Positions 3,118 through 48,975 of a stretch of 64,000 nt of DNA are shown piece by piece. Both the position numbers and the translations under genes were made by a program. The DNA is from Pelagomonas calceolata (Eukaryota). How positions within the stretch are numbered: the first letter of the stretch is position 1; each line of letters begins with the position of its first letter. A model generated the notes under the pieces. The model was not told the DNA's origin. It searched no databases and was given only the letters and a program-made list of their open reading frames with translations. The stretch is from assembly GCA_918797485.1 (NCBI GenBank), contig CAKKNE010000005.1:3534001-3598000 (forward strand). The letters are read 5' to 3'.

Positions 3118-6100
3118 ATGAACGCCATGGAGTTCTACCTCCGGAGCGTCGACGCCCAGACCTGGCAGGACTGCGAGGCGGAGGGCGTAGACCCCGATGC
3201 CGCTTTAACAGAGCTGCCCTCGCCGGCGCCCGAGGCACCATCAATGATCGTCGAGGTCGCCCCGCCGGCTATTTTAAAACCGCCACCGGCGCCGGCCGTG
3301 CGCCCGCCTAAACCACCACAGTCGCCCCAGCGCCGCGTGCCCCAGTCTCCGGCCTCCGCGGCGTCCGCCCGGCGACACAGCCGCGTGCCCCAGTCACCCG
3401 CCGAAGCTGATGACCAGCAGGCACCTCTCTACGAGGCCGTCACCTTCCAGCCAACGCACCGGCGGCCGACCAAACAACCCATAGTGCGGTCGCGGCCGCC
3501 CCTAAGGCAGCGCGCCTACGACGCCCCGCACGCCGGCCGCGCCGCGCGCACTTTAACCGCGAAAACCAAAGGCCAGGAGCTCGTAAAATCCTGGCCCTGC
3601 CGCACGCCCATCATCTTAGATGCTGCAAATGCGAGAAGGGAGGCCAAAAATGCAGTGCACGCGCCGAAGGTTCGGATTGACCTCGAGTGGTGTTATGGGT
3701 TTGACACGTCGATCGTGGGGCGGAATTTATTTGCTATCGATCGTCAGCGAGTTATGTTCGCTTGTGCAGCCCTGGTCGTGATCTACGACACAAAAAAACA
3801 TACCCAGAAGTTCTTCCGCGGGCATGGGAGCCGCCGGGTCACTTCCCTAACAGTAGACAGACGCATCGCTTGTTCGGGAGACGCCCATTCAAAACCAGAG
3901 GTCTTAGTCTGGGACGTCGAAACGTTACAAGTCCTCCACCGGCTCGGGTCGGGCTTCTTCCACCACCATGTGCTCGTACTGTGTTTGTCACCAAATGCAA
4001 AAGCGTTAGTGGCCATCGACGCCTCGGAAACCCATAACCTCGGCTATTGGCGTTTAGATGATCTAAGACGATTAGCAAGATTGAAAAAAGAAAAACAGGA
4101 ACACCAAATCAGCGCGCGGGAAGCGCACGCCCACTGGGGCGGCATGGCTTCCAATGATGTGGCTTCGGACGATCTGAGGACCAAAGAGCAAAAACCAGCC
4201 GCATGTCGGCGGGCCGAGGTCCACGAGCCCCCCGCCGTGTATGATGGGTGCTGGATGTTCGAGGATGATACGAAGGAGGAACTCGTGGAAGGCGACCACG
4301 CGGGCGCGGGCGCGAAGCCGCAGTTCTGCACCGTGGGGCCCGGTGTGGAAATCAAATTTTACGGCGCGTTCGTCGCGTCGTCCTCCACGCCATCGGCGCG
4401 ACGCCTGCTCGATGGCGTGGCGATGCCGGTTCCTCGCCGCTCGACGGGGCCAGCACGGCCACGTCATCGCCGAGAAATGACTTAGTGAAGAACTATCGGT
4501 GCACGCGACACACTGGTTGATTTCCACACAGGTTGGGCCGGGGAGACACGTCAAGTTCTGGACGGCCTCCAAGGGCATTCGCGTCGATAATAATAGGGAG
4601 GACATGACGTCCGCCAAGCACCAGTGGCGCGTCGATAGTAAGAATGGACAATGGCCCACGAAAGACGAAACTACTCCCATGTTCCAATGTGTCTTCGTCG
4701 CTTCCACGCAAACATTATTGACGGGTGGGGGGGATGGTCAAGTATATGCGTGGAAGGGGCGGGTGTGTTTTGCGGTATTTCCGGTGCACGGTTCTACAGT
4801 GAAGGGCGTGAATCCGATTCGGCTCACCGTTGATAATGACAGGCTGTGTACCGGTGATTCAACAGGGAGGGTGCGGTGCTGGGGGGCGATACCACCTTCA
4901 GGTAAAGGTAGTAGTGCGGCGGGCTGGCGCGCGGGCGGCGCTCTTGTTGTCGATGATGCGAGGGGCATGGAAAAAGAGACGTCGCAGGGAGCGCCTTTGC
5001 GAGACGTCTGCTTTTTGGGAGACGACATGCTTGCGTTAACGTCACAGGGCGTCTTGGTTCGTATTGATACGAAGGGTGCGCAGTCCGTGCTGTTAAGTGG
5101 GCACTTCTCGCCGACGCCTACTACACAATTGCGAGCCTGCGCTACACTATCAAACAATAGAGTCGTGACGGCGGGCATGGACCGGCTGCTTTGTGTGTGG
5201 GACGTCGAGTCGAAGGAGCTGGTGAACTATACGCGGTTGTTGCGACCGGCGCGGTGCGTCGATGCTTCTGAGGGTAAAATAGCCGCCGGTCTAGATGACG
5301 GCAGCGTTGTGGTCGTGGATGCGTCCACGATGGAAACCTTGTTCATAATCAAGGGCGGCTCTCATACAAAAACAGAAGTAGAAGAAAGAAGGCACCACGG
5401 CCTCGGCCCGTGCGGCCTCATGGCCGCGCAATCCGCGGGCCAGCAGCACGAGGCTTTGAATGCCCAAAAGGTGTCGGACGACGGCGTCGACAGCGTGCGG
5501 CTCACGCCTGACAAAGTTGCGGTCGGGCGCCGCGACGGCTCGCTGCGCGTGTATGCCATGGACGGCGCGCAAGTCGTTTCATACAACAACTGCGGGAGCC
5601 GCATCATCCAGATCGACTGGGACGCCTCACAAAACTACATCAGGTGCGCCACGGCGGCGAAGGAGCTGCGGTGGTTCGACGTCAGCCAAAGGAAGACGAT
5701 CAGCGCGCGCCGCGCGGCGGAATTGGATTGGGAGAGCCCGACGACGGTCTTCGGGCGCCACTGCGTCGCGGCGTGGTCCTCTTCATTTATAGTGGCGTCG
5801 TGCCACGCCGCGCGGGGCGTGCTCGCTTCCGGAAGTGACGCGGGTATATTAAGGTTGCTCAAGAGCCCGGCCGTGGTCCGGGGCGCCCCCGGCGTCGACG
5901 CCGCGGCGCACGCCTCGTCCATCACTTCCGTAAGATGGAGCGGCGACCGCCTGTTTACGGTCGGCGGCCGCGACCGCGCTTTATTACAGTGGCGCGTCGT
6001 GCCTTTGATGGAGAAGAAGCCGCTCACGGCGCTCCAGAAGGCGCGCGCCTCCCGATTCTGGAAGGACGCGCGGTCGAAGCTCGCGCTCATCGCGAAGACG

Positions 6101-15093: not shown

Positions 15094-15881
15094 TCACTGG
15101 TCCGCCGCCAACTTCACGGACTCGTCGGGCACCTTGTCGATGACGTCGAGCGACTCGAGCGACCCGCCCTGCCACGACGGCTGTTCCTCCACCACTCTAA
15201 TTTCTTCCTTCCCATCCATCGCCTCGGCTTGGGGTGGCGCGCCGCCCGCGCGGTGGTACGGCCAGCGCGACTTGAGGCGCACGCAGACGCCGACGTGGGG
15301 GTGACACGCGAGGAAGCAGATCGCGCACGACCTGTGGGTGTACCGTTGACGGCGGCACAGACACGACCTCAGTGACCGATACGCGATTCGAACGCGTAAC
15401 CTTCAGGACTGGAATCTGACGCGCTACCGTTGCGCCAATCGGTCGAAGGCAAGTCGTACGAGGACGCCGCCGCGGTACATCGGGATCTCGGAGTCGCACG
15501 GGATCGCCACGTTCTCCACGATGCAGCAGCACTGGCCCTGGTGCTTGATGCACGTCGTCGGGCACTTGACGCCGATCGCGCAGCAACACAAGCCTATCTG
15601 GCAGCAGACCTCCTTGTCGACGAAGGACTCGCAACACGTGAGCGGCGGCATTCCGGCCTTGAAGCAGAAGCGCTGGACGCAGCAGAGGAGTTCGCCCTTG
15701 CACGACGCCCCAATGCACTCGGGGCAATCGGCGTACAAACTCAAATTGCAGCAGAGGCACCCGTTGATGAGGATGAGGTCCGACCTGCGCGGCGAGACGA
15801 TCGCGGCGACTCGGCGACGGCGGGCGCGCGAGTAATTATAGTTTTCTGCGCGGTTGTCGGCTCATCCACGACTTGGACCAT
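15094..15881 (-). CDS. Cys-rich small protein; intron 15332-15478 and a probable first intron ending at 15785
   Basis: Dense CC/CxC repeats; removal of the GTACC...CACAG intron gives EIPM|SCAICFLACHP. First-exon boundary uncertain. Confidence 0.6.
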
Positions 15882-23821: not shown

Positions 23822-25087
23822 ATGAAGTTTGCATTTGCCGCCCTGGCCCTGGCCGCCAGCGCTTCGGCGCTGACTCCGCCGAAGAGCGCCGTTGCCTCGG
23901 CGACCCGTGGCGGCTCTCTGGAGGTTGGTGCACTTAAGGCTGCCGCCGCGCCCATCAAAGAAGTTTCGGCCCTCCCGCGGGGTGGCGTGATCGCCAACTT
24001 CGTCGGCGTCGACGTCGCGCTCCTCAGCTACTTCTTCTTCTGGTACCTGGGCAACTACTACTGTCCGCGGCCCGCGTCCGAAACAAGAACTCCGTGGCGC
24101 AATGGATAGCGTATCAGACTTCGAATCTGGGGGTTGCGGGTTCGAGTCCCGTCGGAGTTGGGCCGTACGCCATCGACGTGAGTTTGAAAAAACTCACGCC
24201 GCCCCCCCGCGCGCGCAGACAACATCACGAACAAGCTCGCCCTCAAGAACTCGGGCGGCGCCCAGGGCTTCCCCATGACGATCGCTTCGCTACAGCTCGG
24301 TGTGGGTGTTATTTATGCCCTCTTCGCCTGGGCGGCGCCGGACATGCGCTCCGCCCCGTCGATCACCTTTGATGATGTGAAGGCCATGGTCCCCGTGGCC
24401 TTTTGTGCGATGATGGCCCACTGCGCGTCGGTCTTCGCCATGTCCGCGGGCGCGGTCAGCTTCGGCCAGATCGTCAAGGCGGCCGAGCCTGCTTTTGCGG
24501 CTGTTTTATCCCAGTTCGTCTACGGCAAGCCCATCTCCAAGGCCAAGTGGCTCTGCCTGATTCCCGTGATCGGCGGCGTCATCATCGCCTCGTTGAAGGA
24601 GCTCGACTTCGCCGTCTCCGCGCTCATCGCGGCCTGTAGCGCGAACCTCTTCGCGGCCTTCAAGGGCAACGAGAACAAGAAGCTCATGGAGACCAAGGGC
24701 CTGAAGGACCGCCTCGGCACGGTCGGCAACCAGTTCGCGGTGACCCAGATCATGGCCTTTATCATGTCCCTACCTCTCTTGTATTTGACGGAAGGGTCGA
24801 AGTGGGGTGAATTTAGAGAGACCCTGTCCACGAACAGCGTCGTGAAGAACAACTTCCTCTACTCGGGCCTCTTCTTCTACGGCTATAATGAATTGGCGAC
24901 GATGACGATCAAGAAGACGAATGCCATCACGCAGTCCGTCGCGAACACGGCGAAGCGCGTCATCGTGATCATCGGCGTGGCTTTAGTGATGGGCGAGTCC
25001 CTCCCGGCCCAGAAGCTGGTGGGGTCGGCGATCTGCATCGGCGGCGTCATGCTCTACTCGATCATCGACGACCTGATGAAGAAGTAG
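23822..25087 (+). CDS. Plastid triose-phosphate/phosphate translocator; join(23822-24062, 24219-25087)
   Basis: Signal peptide; spliced WYLGNYY|YNITNKLALK; AVSFGQIVKAAEPAF, SVANTAKRVIVI; multiple TM segments. Confidence 0.9.
24088..24160 (+). tRNA. tRNA-Arg(UCG), inside intron 24063-24218
   Basis: 73-nt cloverleaf: acceptor AACTCCG/CGGAGTT, D-arm GCGC-AATGGATA-GCGT, anticodon stem TCAGA/TCTGG with TCG at 24121-24123, T-arm GCGGG-TTCGAGT-CCCGT, discriminator G. Confidence 0.92.
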
Positions 25088-25395
25088 GTCCGCTCCTCTC
25101 TCCTCCCGGTCGGGGCTTAAGTAAGTAGCACTATAGAGTATCGACAGCCCATCATCATCACGGCGAGCGCGGGGGGCGACCGGGGTCGGAGAATCCGGTC
25201 CTCAAACTCAAACCCACGCGTCTCACGCGTCCCAAACTCAAGCTTACACCTCCAGACGGGTCTAAAACTGACACCGCGGTTGCCGCCCCGCTAGTCCACT
25301 GCCCTAGCGGCCGGGCTGCCGGCTGCACGCAGTGCCCGAGCTGGGCAGCGTCGCGCGCGGGAGCAGCCCGCCAACGACACAAAAAAGTAGCAGCC

Positions 25396-26305
25396 ATGGC
25401 AGAGGTGGCGCCAGCGGGCGCGAAGGAGGTCGACCAGCGGCCCAACACGCATGACCCCTTCTGGGACGGCCAGAATGATATTTTGAAGACCTACTCGCGC
25501 GCGCCTGTGTGGAATTATTGCGGAGACCTTCGCGAGCCTCCACGCCATCGAGCCGCAGCAGTTACGGAGGCAACGTCGAGTCTTGGCCTGGAATCTCCAC
25601 GCCATTGAGCAGACGCAGTCACGGGGGCGACGTCGCGTCGATGGCGTGGGGCGCCTGCGATTGATTTCCACACACAGGTTCAACTACGAGGCGCTCACGG
25701 CGTACAAGCAGAAGCTGCACCGATCGGAGATGCTTGGCGCGATAATTGTCCCGCCGTGCATGCTTCTTGCCCTTCTCTCATATCCTTGCGACATGGCCAA
25801 CATCCGCGACGAAGTGAACGCGCGCCACATCGCGCTGACGGCGGATGGATTACGTTACGTCGTGGACAAGCACCCGACCGGCTGTCGGTTACAGTGCCAG
25901 GACGAGGGCCGCAGCTCGCAGACCGTGCCCTACGACAAGATTACTGACTGCGACGTGGAGGAGCCGGCCGGGAGCGAGGGCTGCCCGTGCATGCTCGTGA
26001 AGCGCACGATGTACACGTTCAACGTCGCCACGGCGAACGGCCCGGCGCTAGGCAACGCCATGGCGGGCCCAGGCCTGTGGGGCATCGACGCGCCCTACGA
26101 ACTCAAGAAGGACGTGTGGTCCATGAAGCGCGGCCAGGGCATCGCCGGCGTCGAGGCGGCATACAACGCCGCGCCCTCGGTCGCGTCCATGGATCGGAGC
26201 GGCGGCGGCGGGGGGATCGGCGGCGGAAACTCCGAGCAACTCCTCGCACAGATACTCCAGTGCATCAAGGAGCAGAACAGCATCCTCGCCCAGTTGAAGA
26301 AGTAG
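25396..26305 (+). CDS. Membrane protein with a bacterial-PH-like domain, copy 1; join(25396-25496, 25678-26305)
   Basis: Spliced KTYS|FNYEAL aligns with uninterrupted copy 2; TM segment, then VPYDKITDCDVEEPAG...FNVATA (bPH_2-like, tentative). Confidence 0.75.
25497..25677 (+). mobile_element. Introner element (181-nt GC-AG intron)
   Basis: 8-nt GCGCGCGC + CTGTGTGGAAT ... TTGATTTCCACACACAG; CCACGCCAT/ATGGCGTGG hairpin; site empty in paralog copy 2. Confidence 0.85.
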
Positions 26306-26321
26306 TGAGCCTTTCCCTCGG

Positions 26322-26611
26322 GCTACATAAATTGCAGTTCGCTTTATATATCTAGACACGCACGGGTTCCGAACGCCGCGCGGTTAGAAGGCCAGCCGCC
26401 CGCGGACGCGCTCCTTGCCGCGCGCGACGGCCCGGCGCCGCGCCGGGAGGCCCTCGCCCTCGTCCTCGCTCTCCGGCGAGTGCAAGTATTATTGGCGTGG
26501 CCCTGGTCGTGGGCGAGTCGCTCCCGGCCCAGAAGCTCGTCGGCTTGGCGATAGATCTGCATCGGCGGCGTCATGCTCTACTCGATCATCGACGATTTGA
26601 TGAAGAAGTAG
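26322..26611. pseudogene. Duplication junction: 3' fragment of the 27807-29411 gene (-) fused to a 3' fragment of the translocator gene (+)
   Basis: 26322-26489 matches ~27744-27912; 26488-26611 matches 24968-25087 with a 4-nt ATAG insertion. Confidence 0.85.
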
Positions 26612-26769
26612 GCGCCCGGTCCTCTCCCGTCCCGATCGGGGCGCTGAAAGGCTACTAGGGATGCCTAGCATACTAGGCGCAGCGCGCAGCCGGCTGCACT
26701 CCCCAGAGCTGGGCAGCGTCGCGGGAGCAGCCCGGTTAGGCTGGCCAACTACACCAGAAAGTAGCAGCC

Positions 26770-27622
26770 ATGGCAGAGGTGGCGCCAGCGGGCGCGAAGG
26801 AGGTCGACCAGCGGCCCAACACGCACGACCCCTTCTGGGACGGCCAGAATGACATCCTGAAGACTTATTCATTTAATTATCAGGCGCTCACGGAGTACAA
26901 GCAGAAGCTGCACCGGTCATATTGTTTGGGACAACATATTTGCTTCCCGCCGGGGTATCTTATTGCCGCCCTCACGTACCCGTGCGAATTGCCGCGTCGT
27001 CCTCCACGCCATCGACGCGACGCCTGCTCGATGGCGCGGCGATGCCGGTTCCTCGCCGCTCGACCGAGCCAGAAGCACCCGACGCACTGGTTGATTTCCA
27101 CCCAGGTGCGACATGAAGAACATCCGCGACGAAGTGTACGCCCGCCACATCGCGCTGACACAGGATGGATTACGTTACATCGTGGACAAGCACCCGAGCC
27201 AGTGTCGGCTGGCGTGCCAGGACGTGGGCCGCAGCTCGCAGACCGTCCCCTACGACAAGATTACTGACTGCGACGTGGAGGAGCCGGCCGGGAGCGAGGG
27301 CTGCCCGTGCCTCCTCGTGAAGCGCACGGAGTACGTGTTCAACGTGGCCACGGCGAACGGCCCGGCGTTCCATTCCTCCATGAGCGTTGGCCTGCGGGGC
27401 ATCGACGCGCCCTACGAACTCAAGAAGGACGTGTGGTCCATGAAGCGCGGCCAGGGCATCGCCGGCGTCGAGGCGGCATACAACGCCGCGCCCTCGGTCG
27501 CGTCCATGGATCGGAGCGGCGGCGGCGGCGGGGGCGGCGGCGGAAACTCCGAGCAGCTCCTCGCCCAAATCCTCCAATGCCTCAAGGAGCAGAACAGCAT
27601 CCTCGCCCAGTTGAAGAAGTAG
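26770..27622 (+). CDS. Membrane protein with a bacterial-PH-like domain, copy 2; join(26770-26981, 27106-27622)
   Basis: Near-identical termini to copy 1; spliced TYP|CDMKNIRD aligns with uninterrupted SYPCDMANIRD in copy 1. Confidence 0.75.
26982..27105 (+). mobile_element. Introner element (124-nt GT-AG intron, 5' TIR absent)
   Basis: GTGCGAAT vs next exon GTGCGACA (6/8); 26993-27064 matches 4374-4445 at 70/72; ends CACTGGTTGATTTCCACCCAG; site empty in copy 1. Confidence 0.85.
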
Positions 27623-27806
27623 TGAAGCCTGGAGTCGTTCACCCCAGACCTTCCTCTCGGGCCCCGTCCCGCCCCCGGCCCTGAGCCCTCATACGCCGTC
27701 GCCCCGAGTGTTTCTGCATGGAAAGACCCGTCGGAGCATCCAAGCTACGTAAATTGCAGTTCGCTTTATATATCTTAGACACGCGCGGGTTCCGAACGCC
27801 GCGCGG

Positions 27807-29411
27807 TTAGAAGGCCAGCCGCCCGCGGACGCGCTCCTTGCCGCGCGCGACGGCCCGGCGCCGCGCCGCGAGGCCCTCGCCCTCGTCCTCGCTCTCCGGC
27901 GAGTTCAAGTATGGCGGGGTTTCCGCGATGATGCGCGGCGCGAGGACCGGCGCCGGCGCCGCGGGCGCGGGCGCGGGCGCGCCCGTCGAGCCCGAGCGCC
28001 GCGCGGCGGCCGATCCACCGCGGCGGCGCGCGGCGGCGGCCCGCGCGCGGGCGCCGCCGCGCTGGCGCGGCGGTGACGGCGAGGCCGCGTCGACGAGCGT
28101 CTGCGGGCCGCGGGCCGCCGGCGACCGCGCCGGCGCCGGCGCGCGCGCCACCGAGGCCGAGGCAGCGGAGCGGGGCGGCGCGCGGCGCGCCGAGGCGTCG
28201 CCGGCGAGCGAGCCGAGGACGCGCCGCTGCGTCGACGCGCCGAGCAGCCGCAGCGACCCCGCGCGGTCGAGCGAGCCCGCGCGGCGCAGCGGCGCGCGCA
28301 CGGGCGGCGGCGCCGCGGGCGGCGGCGGCGGCGGCCGCGTGCGCGTGCGCGCGAGCGGCTGCGACGACCGCGGCGCCGACGCCGGCGCGCGGCGCGGGCG
28401 CGCGCGCGGCGCCGGCGCGGCGGCGGGCGGCGCGGGCGTCGTCGACGGCGCGGCCGGCGCGGCCGGCGCGGGCGCGGCGGCCGTCGCCGCGCAGAAGGCG
28501 GCCCAGGAGCCGCCCGACGGCGCGCCGCCCGACGACGACGCGCGGCGCTCGAGGCGCGGCCGCTTGGCGGGCGGCAGCATGGACCGCGCGGGCGCGGGCC
28601 AGGCGCCGTCGTCGTTCTGGCGCGGCCGGCGTCTGGGGGGAGGCGGCGGCTCGTCCTGGCTCGCGAGTTCCAGGGCGGCGGCGAGGCGGTCGAGGACCTC
28701 CGGCGCGAGCGTTGACAAAGGTGGCTGGAGCGCCGTCGCCACGAAGGATGGGAGCGACGCGTAGTCGACGTGGTAGTCGGCGTCGTCCGCGGGCCGCGCC
28801 CTTCGCGGCGGCTCGCAGCGCACGTGCGGCGCGTTCAGGGCGAAGGACGCGTGCTCGACGATGGCGCGCACGGCCCTAAAGTCCCGATCCTGCAAGCGGC
28901 GCGCGTCCGCGCTGAGCGTCACGCGCAGGAGCACCTGCAGCTCCGCGTCCCTCAGCTTCCTCCTCGCTTCGTCGGCCGACGACGTGCGCGTGGGGCTCCG
29001 CGCCGGCAGCGTTTCTGTAGTCGCTCGTTGCAAGGGCGGCCGCACGCAGCGCGCTCTCACGGCCCGTCGTAACGCTCGCGCCTCGACTCGTGTCGAAGCC
29101 CCGAGCTCCTGTATCAATTGGGGCACCCATGCCACGGCCAGCGTGCGCGGCGGCGGCACGCGCCGCGCGACCGAATCAGCACAAGCCCGCCAGCAGACGT
29201 CGGCGACGGCGTCGCGGCGCTCGCCCGGCGCGGCGCGCGCGCCGACGGCCGCCGCCGCTCGCCTCGCGGCGCGCGCGAAGGCGGCGTAGTCCTCGAACAA
29301 CGCCGGCGCGGGACGGCTCCGGCCGGGCGTCGGGGCCTTGGGCTGGTTCCGCGCGCCGACGGGCGTCCGCGGCGCGGGCGTGCGCTTGGGTGGGGGCGAG
29401 GCGGGCTCCAT
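27807..29411 (-). CDS. Low-complexity protein, possibly Sld3/Treslin-like
   Basis: KLRDAELQVLLRV resembles the Sld3/Treslin-domain REx(E/Q)LQ(I/V)LLR motif; C-terminal IIAETP is a CDK-type site; the rest is Pro/Ala/Arg-rich. Confidence 0.4.
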   Translation of the reverse strand: MEPASPPPKRTPAPRTPVGARNQPKAPTPGRSRPAPALFEDYAAFARAARRAAAAVGARAAPGERRDAVADVCWRACADSVARRVPPPRTLAVAWVPQLIQELGASTRVEARALRRAVRARCVRPPLQRATTETLPARSPTRTSSADEARRKLRDAELQVLLRVTLSADARRLQDRDFRAVRAIVEHASFALNAPHVRCEPPRRARPADDADYHVDYASLPSFVATALQPPLSTLAPEVLDRLAAALELASQDEPPPPPRRRPRQNDDGAWPAPARSMLPPAKRPRLERRASSSGGAPSGGSWAAFCAATAAAPAPAAPAAPSTTPAPPAAAPAPRARPRRAPASAPRSSQPLARTRTRPPPPPPAAPPPVRAPLRRAGSLDRAGSLRLLGASTQRRVLGSLAGDASARRAPPRSAASASVARAPAPARSPAARGPQTLVDAASPSPPRQRGGARARAAAARRRGGSAAARRSGSTGAPAPAPAAPAPVLAPRIIAETPPYLNSPESEDEGEGLAARRRAVARGKERVRGRLAF

Positions 29412-48114: not shown

Positions 48115-48975
48115 ATGCGGCCGCAAAAGAGCATGCCAACCCTGTCCCTGCCTCCAGACGTTGTCGGCGCGATATTCCAGTTCCTCAAGCCCGCCCACGT
48201 CTTAGATGCCGCCCCGACAGCGAAAGCGTGGGCCGAGGCCGGCGAATCAAAATTAGTCTGGGACGGCCTGGTCGCGCAAACAGTCGATACCGCTGTCCGT
48301 GATGTGCTCGCTGTCGGCGGCGCATCAACTCACAACGCGAAAGCGGACGCGGCCGTGCGAAACGCCCTCGACCGCTGCGACCAGAAATCTAACAAATGGG
48401 CGGCAAAAAATCCAGCCCTGGCGAGCGCCAAGGCGAAAGCCTGGTACAAAATAGGCGTCGCCTTACCCCCCGTCACGGCCGCGGTCGTCGCCGAGGTGTT
48501 ACCGTATCGATGCGTCATCTCGTTAGACCGGCGCGTCTACGACTGCACGAAGTTCGTGTTCGAAGGCAGCCCCTACCACCACCCGGGCGGCTCGTCGAAC
48601 ATCCGGCGCGAGCATGGGAGGGACGTCGGGCGTTTTTTTGACATCTTCGCGCACGCAAAAAGCTGTGTGGAAATCAAATTTCAGGCGAATTACTTCTGCG
48701 TCGGCTCGAAGAACCTAACTCACTGGTTGATTTCCACACAGACTATGACCGCGCATCGGTTGATGCGCAAGGATATGCTCGCCTGGGACGGCCCGTTGCA
48801 CGCCGGCGCGCCGTCTCTCCCGGCTTGTGTGCTGACAAGGGCGCGGCGGCGACGACGCCACGTGAGCGAGGCATCTTCATCACGATTCTCGCTCGGCCAC
48901 CTCATCTTCGGAGCATCGTTAGCGATGCTGTGCCGCGTCGCGAGCCGCTGGACCTCGGCAATAGATCTAAGTTGA
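48115..48975 (+). CDS. F-box-like + cytochrome b5 heme-binding domain protein; join(48115-48654, 48742-48975)
   Basis: LSLPPDVVGAIFQFL...W F-box; VYDCTKF...HPGG...GRD...F...H|T..A..LM b5 motif; hydrophobic C-tail. Start 48115 or 48133. Confidence 0.7.
   Translation: MRPQKSMPTLSLPPDVVGAIFQFLKPAHVLDAAPTAKAWAEAGESKLVWDGLVAQTVDTAVRDVLAVGGASTHNAKADAAVRNALDRCDQKSNKWAAKNPALASAKAKAWYKIGVALPPVTAAVVAEVLPYRCVISLDRRVYDCTKFVFEGSPYHHPGGSSNIRREHGRDVGRFFDIFAHAKSCVEIKFQANYFCVGSKNLTHWLISTQTMTAHRLMRKDMLAWDGPLHAGAPSLPACVLTRARRRRRHVSEASSSRFSLGHLIFGASLAMLCRVASRWTSAIDLS
48655..48741 (+). mobile_element. Introner element (87-nt GC-AG intron, in frame, perfect 15-bp TIR)
   Basis: GCAAAAAG + CTGTGTGGAAATCAA ... TTGATTTCCACACAG. 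Confidence 0.85.

Follow-up and report, generated by a model that had tools for sequence, protein, structure and literature searches.

Do two tandem gene copies that carry introns at reciprocal positions record two fresh intron gains, with each copy serving as the empty-site control for the other? Such a pair lies in the 64,000-nt stretch of the Pelagomonas calceolata genome analysed here (contig CAKKNE010000005.1, positions 3,534,001 to 3,598,000; hereafter the window), and a sequence-only reading had described it as two independent, precise gains since the copies diverged. Intron gains are normally called, and targets before insertion read, against empty sites in paralogs or orthologs. At this locus of a recombining planktonic species the control fails: introns move between alleles and between paralogs, and the empty site has changed at precisely the base on which the co-opted splice site depends.

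Two gene copies with reciprocal, spliced introns

Copy 1 (25396..26305, forward strand; exons 25396-25496 and 25678-26305) and copy 2 (26770..27622, forward strand; exons 26770-26981 and 27106-27622) each encode 242 amino acids, and 209 of the 242 residues are identical between the two proteins. Their spliced products equal the UniRef P. calceolata proteins P0086 and P0087, respectively, over 242/242 residues, and the RNA of copy 1 starts near 25342. Intron 1 (25497..25677, forward strand) is a 181-nt GC-AG introner lying in phase 2 within Ser34 of copy 1 (KTYS/FNY), and intron 2 (26982..27105, forward strand) is a 124-nt GT-AG introner lying in phase 2 within the Pro codon of copy 2 (YP/CDM). 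Coordinates and the alignment of the copies agreed with the earlier description of both inserts, each site being uninterrupted in the opposite copy. Stranded raw RNA reads, all of them sense, were spliced at exactly these points: the joint 25496>25678 was crossed by 64 (X21) and 191 (X24) reads and the joint 26981>27106 by 60 (X21) and 128 (X24) reads, X21 and X24 representing one sample. Both joints were additionally found in contigs of two further studies (X8 and X13, presumed to be RNA), and no intron-free DNA joint occurred among the joints listed.

Neither P0086 nor P0087 matched a Pfam family, and a search of genome-contig and viral-contig collections with P0087 returned no relative. The ESM Atlas placed the 242-aa protein with DUF7642/bPH_2 clusters at 0.89, which is a lead only. 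A hydrophobic segment just before the YP site (codons 49-70; approximately 25540-25610 after splicing; genomic 25722-25788 and 26914-26981) was hypervariable, with 22 types among 52 in-frame proteins, and the rest of the protein was conserved; this segment is probably a membrane span under diversifying selection. In the public P. calceolata gene model P0156 (CAH0377410.1), copy 1 continues into copy 2 in an incorrect reading frame, and the model apparently fuses both paralogs. P0073 is a comparable copy-1/copy-2 hybrid transcript.

A tandem duplication with mosaic copies

The two copies belong to a tandem duplication (24968..27912, no strand assigned) with a unit of approximately 1.5 kb, unit 1 spanning about 24968-26488 and unit 2 about 26488-27912. 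Each unit contains the 3' end of the upstream gene, a member of the triose-phosphate-transporter family (Pfam TPT, E 8e-80), followed by the 242-aa gene and its 3' flank. At the tandem junction (26488..26612, forward strand), the duplicated TPT 3' fragment is frameshifted and carries a 4-nt insertion. Over 40 codons this fragment differed from the intact copy by 11 synonymous and 2 non-synonymous changes, and it was about as close to its own original (107/121) as to the metagenomic relatives L001 (107/120) and L007 (108/120), the identities lying at 88-90%. The tandem arrangement itself was corroborated by DNA bridging the junction near 26488, namely, a contig of X1, possibly the source sample (26363-26582, 0 differences), a seawater contig of X9 (26391-26583, 2 differences) and the relative L003. 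In the DNA runs X2 and X5, no piece crossing the junction was among those listed, which speaks neither for nor against the tandem. Among the sequences examined, no single record, and so no long read of the kind that the sequence-only reading had called for, covered both copies whole.

Synonymous differences between the copies were unevenly distributed, with 1 in codons 1-27, 0 in codons 172-205 and 9/21 in codons 28-48, around the site of intron 1 (site 1). The nearest neighbours of the copies also shifted between segments in unrooted segment trees, and in the 135 nt of exon 3' of the empty YP site, copy 1 had 2 differences from L003, 4 from L007 and 7 from L001. The uneven differences and the shifting neighbours suggest that the paralogs exchange patches. 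As judged from relationships without a rooted tree, the tandem itself probably originated when haplotypes that had already diverged crossed over unequally, with exchange continuing afterwards.

The TPT gene contains a 156-nt GT-AG intron (24063-24218, forward strand) that is spliced in RNA and houses a tRNA-Arg(TCG) gene at 24088-24160; this tRNA gene appears to be intact in L001 and to have an internal deletion in L007. A tRNA-Trp(CCA) gene is located at 15372-15444 on the reverse strand of the window.

Element anatomy and family

A near full-length relative of intron 2 at 4333..4531 (forward strand; 106/117 identical to intron 2) served as the anatomy reference. It begins with 8 bases that repeat the start of the next exon (7/8), followed by a 15-bp terminal inverted repeat (TIR; 14/15), and its right TIR ends in the acceptor AG. 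The plan of the intron 2 family is accordingly a 15-bp-TIR element between two 8-bp target copies, with the first two bases of the intron-side copy as the 5' splice site. Splicing is seamless because the donor comes from these two bases and the TIR ends with the acceptor AG. In intron 2 itself the left TIR has been deleted and the right TIR kept (TIR match 3/15). A 6-base repeat at its ends was considered as a 6-bp target-site duplication (TSD) and rejected, as it is what remains of the 8-bp TSD beside the 5' deletion. At the YP site, the first 8 bases of the element matched the next exon at 6/8 in copy 2, at 7/8 in the second copy of L003 (5' end) and at 5/8 in L007, whose 162-nt YP element has both TIRs (14/15), including the intact left TIR missing from copy 2. 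The TIR match was 14-15/15 in the intact members (window 4333-4531, window 48655-48741 and the YP element of L007). The short element at 48663-48741, within the second of these, has perfect 15-bp TIRs. On both strands a GC or GT lies 8 nt ahead of it, but it has no 8-bp duplication that matches.

Intron 1 has degenerate TIR-like ends (9/15 ungapped) starting 8 nt after the donor, and no recognisable TSD (2/8 in the window, 3/8 in L007); since the 8-nt spacing between donor and TIR is that of the other members, the target copy may have decayed. A third introner of 68 nt occurs at KIT/DCD in L007 (2124-2191) and L003 (275-342), identical in both and present in neither window copy. Its first 8 bases matched the next exon at 3/8, again no recognisable TSD, and a read-through ORF matching it (P0142) was found on 145 contigs. 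The full insertion anatomy, TSD plus TIR, was therefore seen for the intron 2 family and not for intron 1 or the KIT intron.

The earlier identification of the inserts as introners was upheld, and an ultimate origin by insertion is supported. Both introns are spliced precisely at GY..AG ends, resemble elements at unrelated loci by a likeness that extends to the intron ends and is not owed to paralogy, and show TIRs or TIR remnants; a TSD supplying one splice site was found for intron 2. Intron 1 sequence is common to ORFs with unrelated flanks (P0133 and P0135-P0141). Summed contig depth over both introns exceeded that over the exons by a factor of hundreds to thousands, a figure that is not a copy number.

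Intron states in relatives

A metagenome scan returned 29 loci, six of which were close and were aligned (L001, L002, L003, L005, L006 and L007), the distant ones being checked by tblastn only. Intron states were additionally surveyed in 164 proteins, including ORFs read through unspliced DNA, which were judged from protein sequence alone, so that an empty site 1 there could reflect partly spliced RNA. An exact look-up found 6 of 10 sequences; those absent were three window ORFs and one L007 ORF. The wild relatives are short-read contigs, in which mis-joining through repeats is possible.

All possible states were encountered. Neither intron was present in L001, P0024 and P0158; L001 is syntenic and single-copy, and the genomic sequence of L001, L005 and L006 runs through both sites without an intron. 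L002 resembles a transcript. Site 1 alone was filled in copy 1, P0147 and P0150, and the YP site alone in copy 2, the second copy of L003, P0088 (71 contigs), P0058, P0157, P0163, P0159 and P0161. Both introns in one gene were found in L007 and in the read-through ORFs P0130, P0164, P0131 and P0132, in which a site-1 element, an exon and a YP element follow one another, as confirmed by a check of the element frames; these ORFs represent two types of exon and three variants of the element. L007 lies directly behind the TPT gene, the position of copy 1, and bears the site-1 intron (173/179 identical to intron 1), the YP element and the KIT element, each flanked by the right exons, with private changes in the 108-nt exon between the site-1 and YP introns; its sequence ends inside the gene. 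A doubly filled gene is not explicable by partial splicing, which cannot create both introns. In P0161, the YP element stands behind the hydrophobic segment of copy 1 itself, which reverses the arrangement in the window. The YP element stood behind 5 of the 22 hydrophobic-segment types as well as that of copy 2, i.e., on at least six exon backgrounds, and YP elements differed by 9-13% among alleles.

L003 shares the tandem junction; its first copy has the YP and KIT elements and its second copy the start of a YP element. The first YP element is 114/115 identical to that of copy 2 and may be a chimera. The second element runs into unrelated sequence and was excluded from identity comparisons beyond its 5' end.

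The site-1, YP and KIT introns thus combine in many ways, and the exons around them are of many backgrounds. Intron state is not a property of the paralog, as shown by the double-intron genes and by P0161, and the claim of two independent gains since the copies diverged does not survive them. A relative with both introns, the case that the sequence-only reading had itself named as contrary, exists in L007, although its status as a strict outgroup is not established. Considering that relatives carry both introns, one or neither, the reciprocal arrangement in the window likely reflects a polymorphism that has been reshuffled and not a pair of recent gains.

Two side observations concern the relatives. 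In L005 (5001-5400) and L006 (47-446), the gene is truncated, frameshifted (4-nt) and intronless, and its genomic surroundings are different. In P0024 and P0158, in which site 1 is empty, Tyr is replaced by Phe beside site 1.

Junction codons of empty sites

The empty sites had been called codon-exact, which holds for the amino acids and not for the target bases. At the empty YP site of copy 1 (25784..25794, forward strand), the Pro codon ends in T, in place of the G of the filled alleles and of L002, L005 and L006; because this G is missing, the co-opted GT could not form in copy 1. In the empty site 1 of copy 2 (26863..26880, forward strand), six adjacent codons with the junction codon at their centre have each changed synonymously to an A/T third base, and 3 of the 8 target bases differ. 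On this comparison of bases, the empty sites are not naive pre-insertion sequence; neither copy keeps the target as it was, and the proposed use of each as the control for the other must be given up.

Over the three introner sites, the junction codon had a derived A/T third base in 8/8 empty allele-sites and 0/6 filled ones, against 33/743 in the background, in a post hoc test on one gene; the 8 empty allele-sites are not independent and amount to five distinct derived codons at three sites. Any synonymous change had a background frequency of 120/861 away from the sites. The derived state was judged against L002, with which L005 and L006 agreed where they covered the position, their outgroup status being assumed from divergence, and the junction counts, with their background of 33/743, excluded codons whose amino acid was unlike that of L002 or whose third base in L002 was A/T. 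At each site, the junction codon was alone among 59 comparable four-fold positions in being changed in all empty and unchanged in all filled alleles. L001 was changed at all three sites despite having no intron. The base affected directly follows the intron AG, as the first of the exon, beside the end of the element, and the change is silent because all three introns are in phase 2. Meanwhile, filled alleles showed heavy change in the intron-side target copies. Linkage of a marker beside an insert is expected; the repeated change on the empty side is the unexpected part.

A run of six A/T-ending codons did not occur in the 3477 codons of 11 window ORFs. In these 11 long ORFs, A/T-ending codons were clustered, with an autocorrelation of 0.25 at lag 1 and 0.18 at lag 2 (shuffles, 0.00 +/- 0.02), and runs of such codons varied between alleles of the TPT gene. 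Two candidate causes were rejected. Nucleosome-scale A/T periodicity as the source of the A/T patches was not found in the window, the maximum z being 2.7 at one lag among the 29 listed (11 ORFs, some including intron sequence); the spectrum of the window sequence likewise had no A/T periodicity, and a CG rise at 178-195 bp was weak (1.4-1.6 x median). In intronless L001, moreover, spacings of 36 and 53 codons separate the changed sites. CpG decay alone was also rejected, since codons in CpG context changed less than others away from the sites (23/277 vs 97/584).

Origin of the intron pattern

We favour, with somewhat more confidence than doubt, an explanation in which long-lived introner insertions, each made in a single allele, segregate and are reshuffled by recombination and conversion, the junction changes arising from local isolation and mutagenesis. 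A short non-autonomous DNA transposon would insert, presumably by transposition, into a single allele, and the insertions would persist as presence/absence polymorphisms. Recombination and gene conversion would reshuffle the introns among alleles and between the tandem copies, the tandem having been made by unequal crossing-over between divergent haplotypes and its copies continuing to swap patches. The weakest step is that the unpaired insert would locally block exchange and raise mutation; never-filled alleles would drift at the base beside the insertion point, and splicing would hold that base in filled alleles. The mirror pattern of the window would be a single state out of this mixture. 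Under local isolation, both haplotypes should change, and the one-sided exon changes fit this poorly; splicing constraint and the changed intron-side target copies answer this only in part. As the exon changes are on empty alleles only, and different empty alleles have different derived codons, loss of introns with a scar fits at least as well.

That loss is the main rival, which we consider possible but well short of an even chance. The introns would once have been common or fixed, and the empty alleles would be secondary products of excision, of which the frame-restoring, wobble-only repairs survived, reciprocal loss yielding the two window copies. Elements of the hAT type change the adjoining base when they excise. 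At this locus the changed base adjoins the element end and is silent in phase 2 in all three introns, five distinct codons are derived at three sites, the pattern of change in empty and constancy in filled alleles is confined at each site to the junction codon among 59 comparable four-fold positions, intronless L001 is altered at all three sites, and the exon of copy 1 3' of its empty YP site is nearest to filled alleles (2 and 4 differences vs 7 from L001). One repair event cannot, however, give neighbouring synonymous changes such as the six in a row of copy 2, joining across two target copies would retain the G, and A/T-ending codons are clustered throughout the window (lag-1 0.25 vs 0.00 +/- 0.02). 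The broader form of the idea, that empty introner sites of P. calceolata are excision scars and that phase-2 copies in four-fold codons can leave silently with only the wobble base changed, seems unlikely to us. If it were true, groups of codons ending in A/T, in a genome rich in GC, would map present or past introners of other alleles, transposon-driven intron loss would have a sequence-readable record, and new insertion sites would be predictable from codon usage alone.

The order originally proposed might be rescued if duplication of an intronless gene was followed by the gain of one introner per copy, and genes with both or neither were produced afterwards by conversion between the paralogs. 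The existence of intronless, single-copy, syntenic L001, the exchange of patches between paralogs and the near identity (114/115) of the element in the copy-1-type gene of L003 to that of copy 2 are in its favour. We nevertheless hold it to be improbable, as the YP elements of L007 and P0131 are more complete than that of copy 2, the YP elements are 9-13% divergent on at least six exon backgrounds while in the TPT fragment, a very rough clock, no more than 2 of 40 codons have changed non-synonymously, and the target sequence needed for the co-opted donor is kept at neither empty site. Less probable still is that the double-intron and swapped states result from chimeric assembly or incomplete splicing of RNA and that the two states of the window alone are real. 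Very high-copy elements do break or tangle short-read contigs, and L003 contains one clear mis-join or rearrangement, but the right exons around three introns and the private changes of the 108-nt exon in L007 argue against this, as do double-intron ORFs spanning two exon types and three element variants. Partial splicing cannot make a gene with both introns.

Comparison with known introners

DNA-transposon introners were reportedly described by Huff, Zilberman and Roy in 2016 in Aureococcus anophagefferens and Micromonas pusilla. In the introner mechanism, as outlined in PMC9860276, the element brings one splice site, and the duplicated target provides the second, and a family of Aureococcus sp. 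has an 8-bp TSD and adds 12 nt to the mRNA. The elements at the present locus share the use of a splice site from the target duplication with introners of this kind and the 8-bp TSD with the Aureococcus sp. family; unlike that family, they add no nucleotides to the mRNA. For P. calceolata, 956 putative introners with GT and GC donors, an AG acceptor and a conserved TIR have been reported (Guerin et al. 2022, PMC9481584, Supplementary Note 3). Our introns agree in species, by protein identity, and in GT/GC donors, AG acceptor, terminal TIR and membership of a repeated family, and differ in that intron 2 is without a left TIR. In the available text of PMC9481584, no TSD length and no allele comparison were found, and the logo in its Figure S3 may hold the TSD. 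The accessible portion of PMC12130899 had nothing on introner donors, TIR, TSD or co-option. The elements are therefore of a known kind, in a species in which introners are already published.

What merits pursuit is the pattern at the junction base; if it is genome-wide, it would provide a direct test, from population sequence only, of how new introns are kept or lost. Within the texts available, the literature search found neither a report of polymorphic introners in P. calceolata nor one of empty-site junction-codon changes. At polymorphic indels, nucleotide divergence has been reported to peak (PMC5127803; PMC3673634); unlike there, as far as those sources are available, the exon changes here are on insert-free alleles only and affect the single base beside the insertion point. 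In wild Micromonas, introner polymorphisms and hot spots have been described, and introners were suggested to impede recombination (Simmons et al. 2015, PMC4540971). As in the accessible account of that system, presence and absence vary among environmental alleles of one gene, with nearby independent insertions. Unlike in that account, the polymorphism here also extends across tandem paralogs, and the empty alleles have a changed junction codon; the word 'synonymous' does not appear in the main text of PMC4540971. At the present locus, the N-terminus of P0129 suggests a different intron ending approximately 4 nt upstream of site 1, which may mark a possible insertion hot spot.
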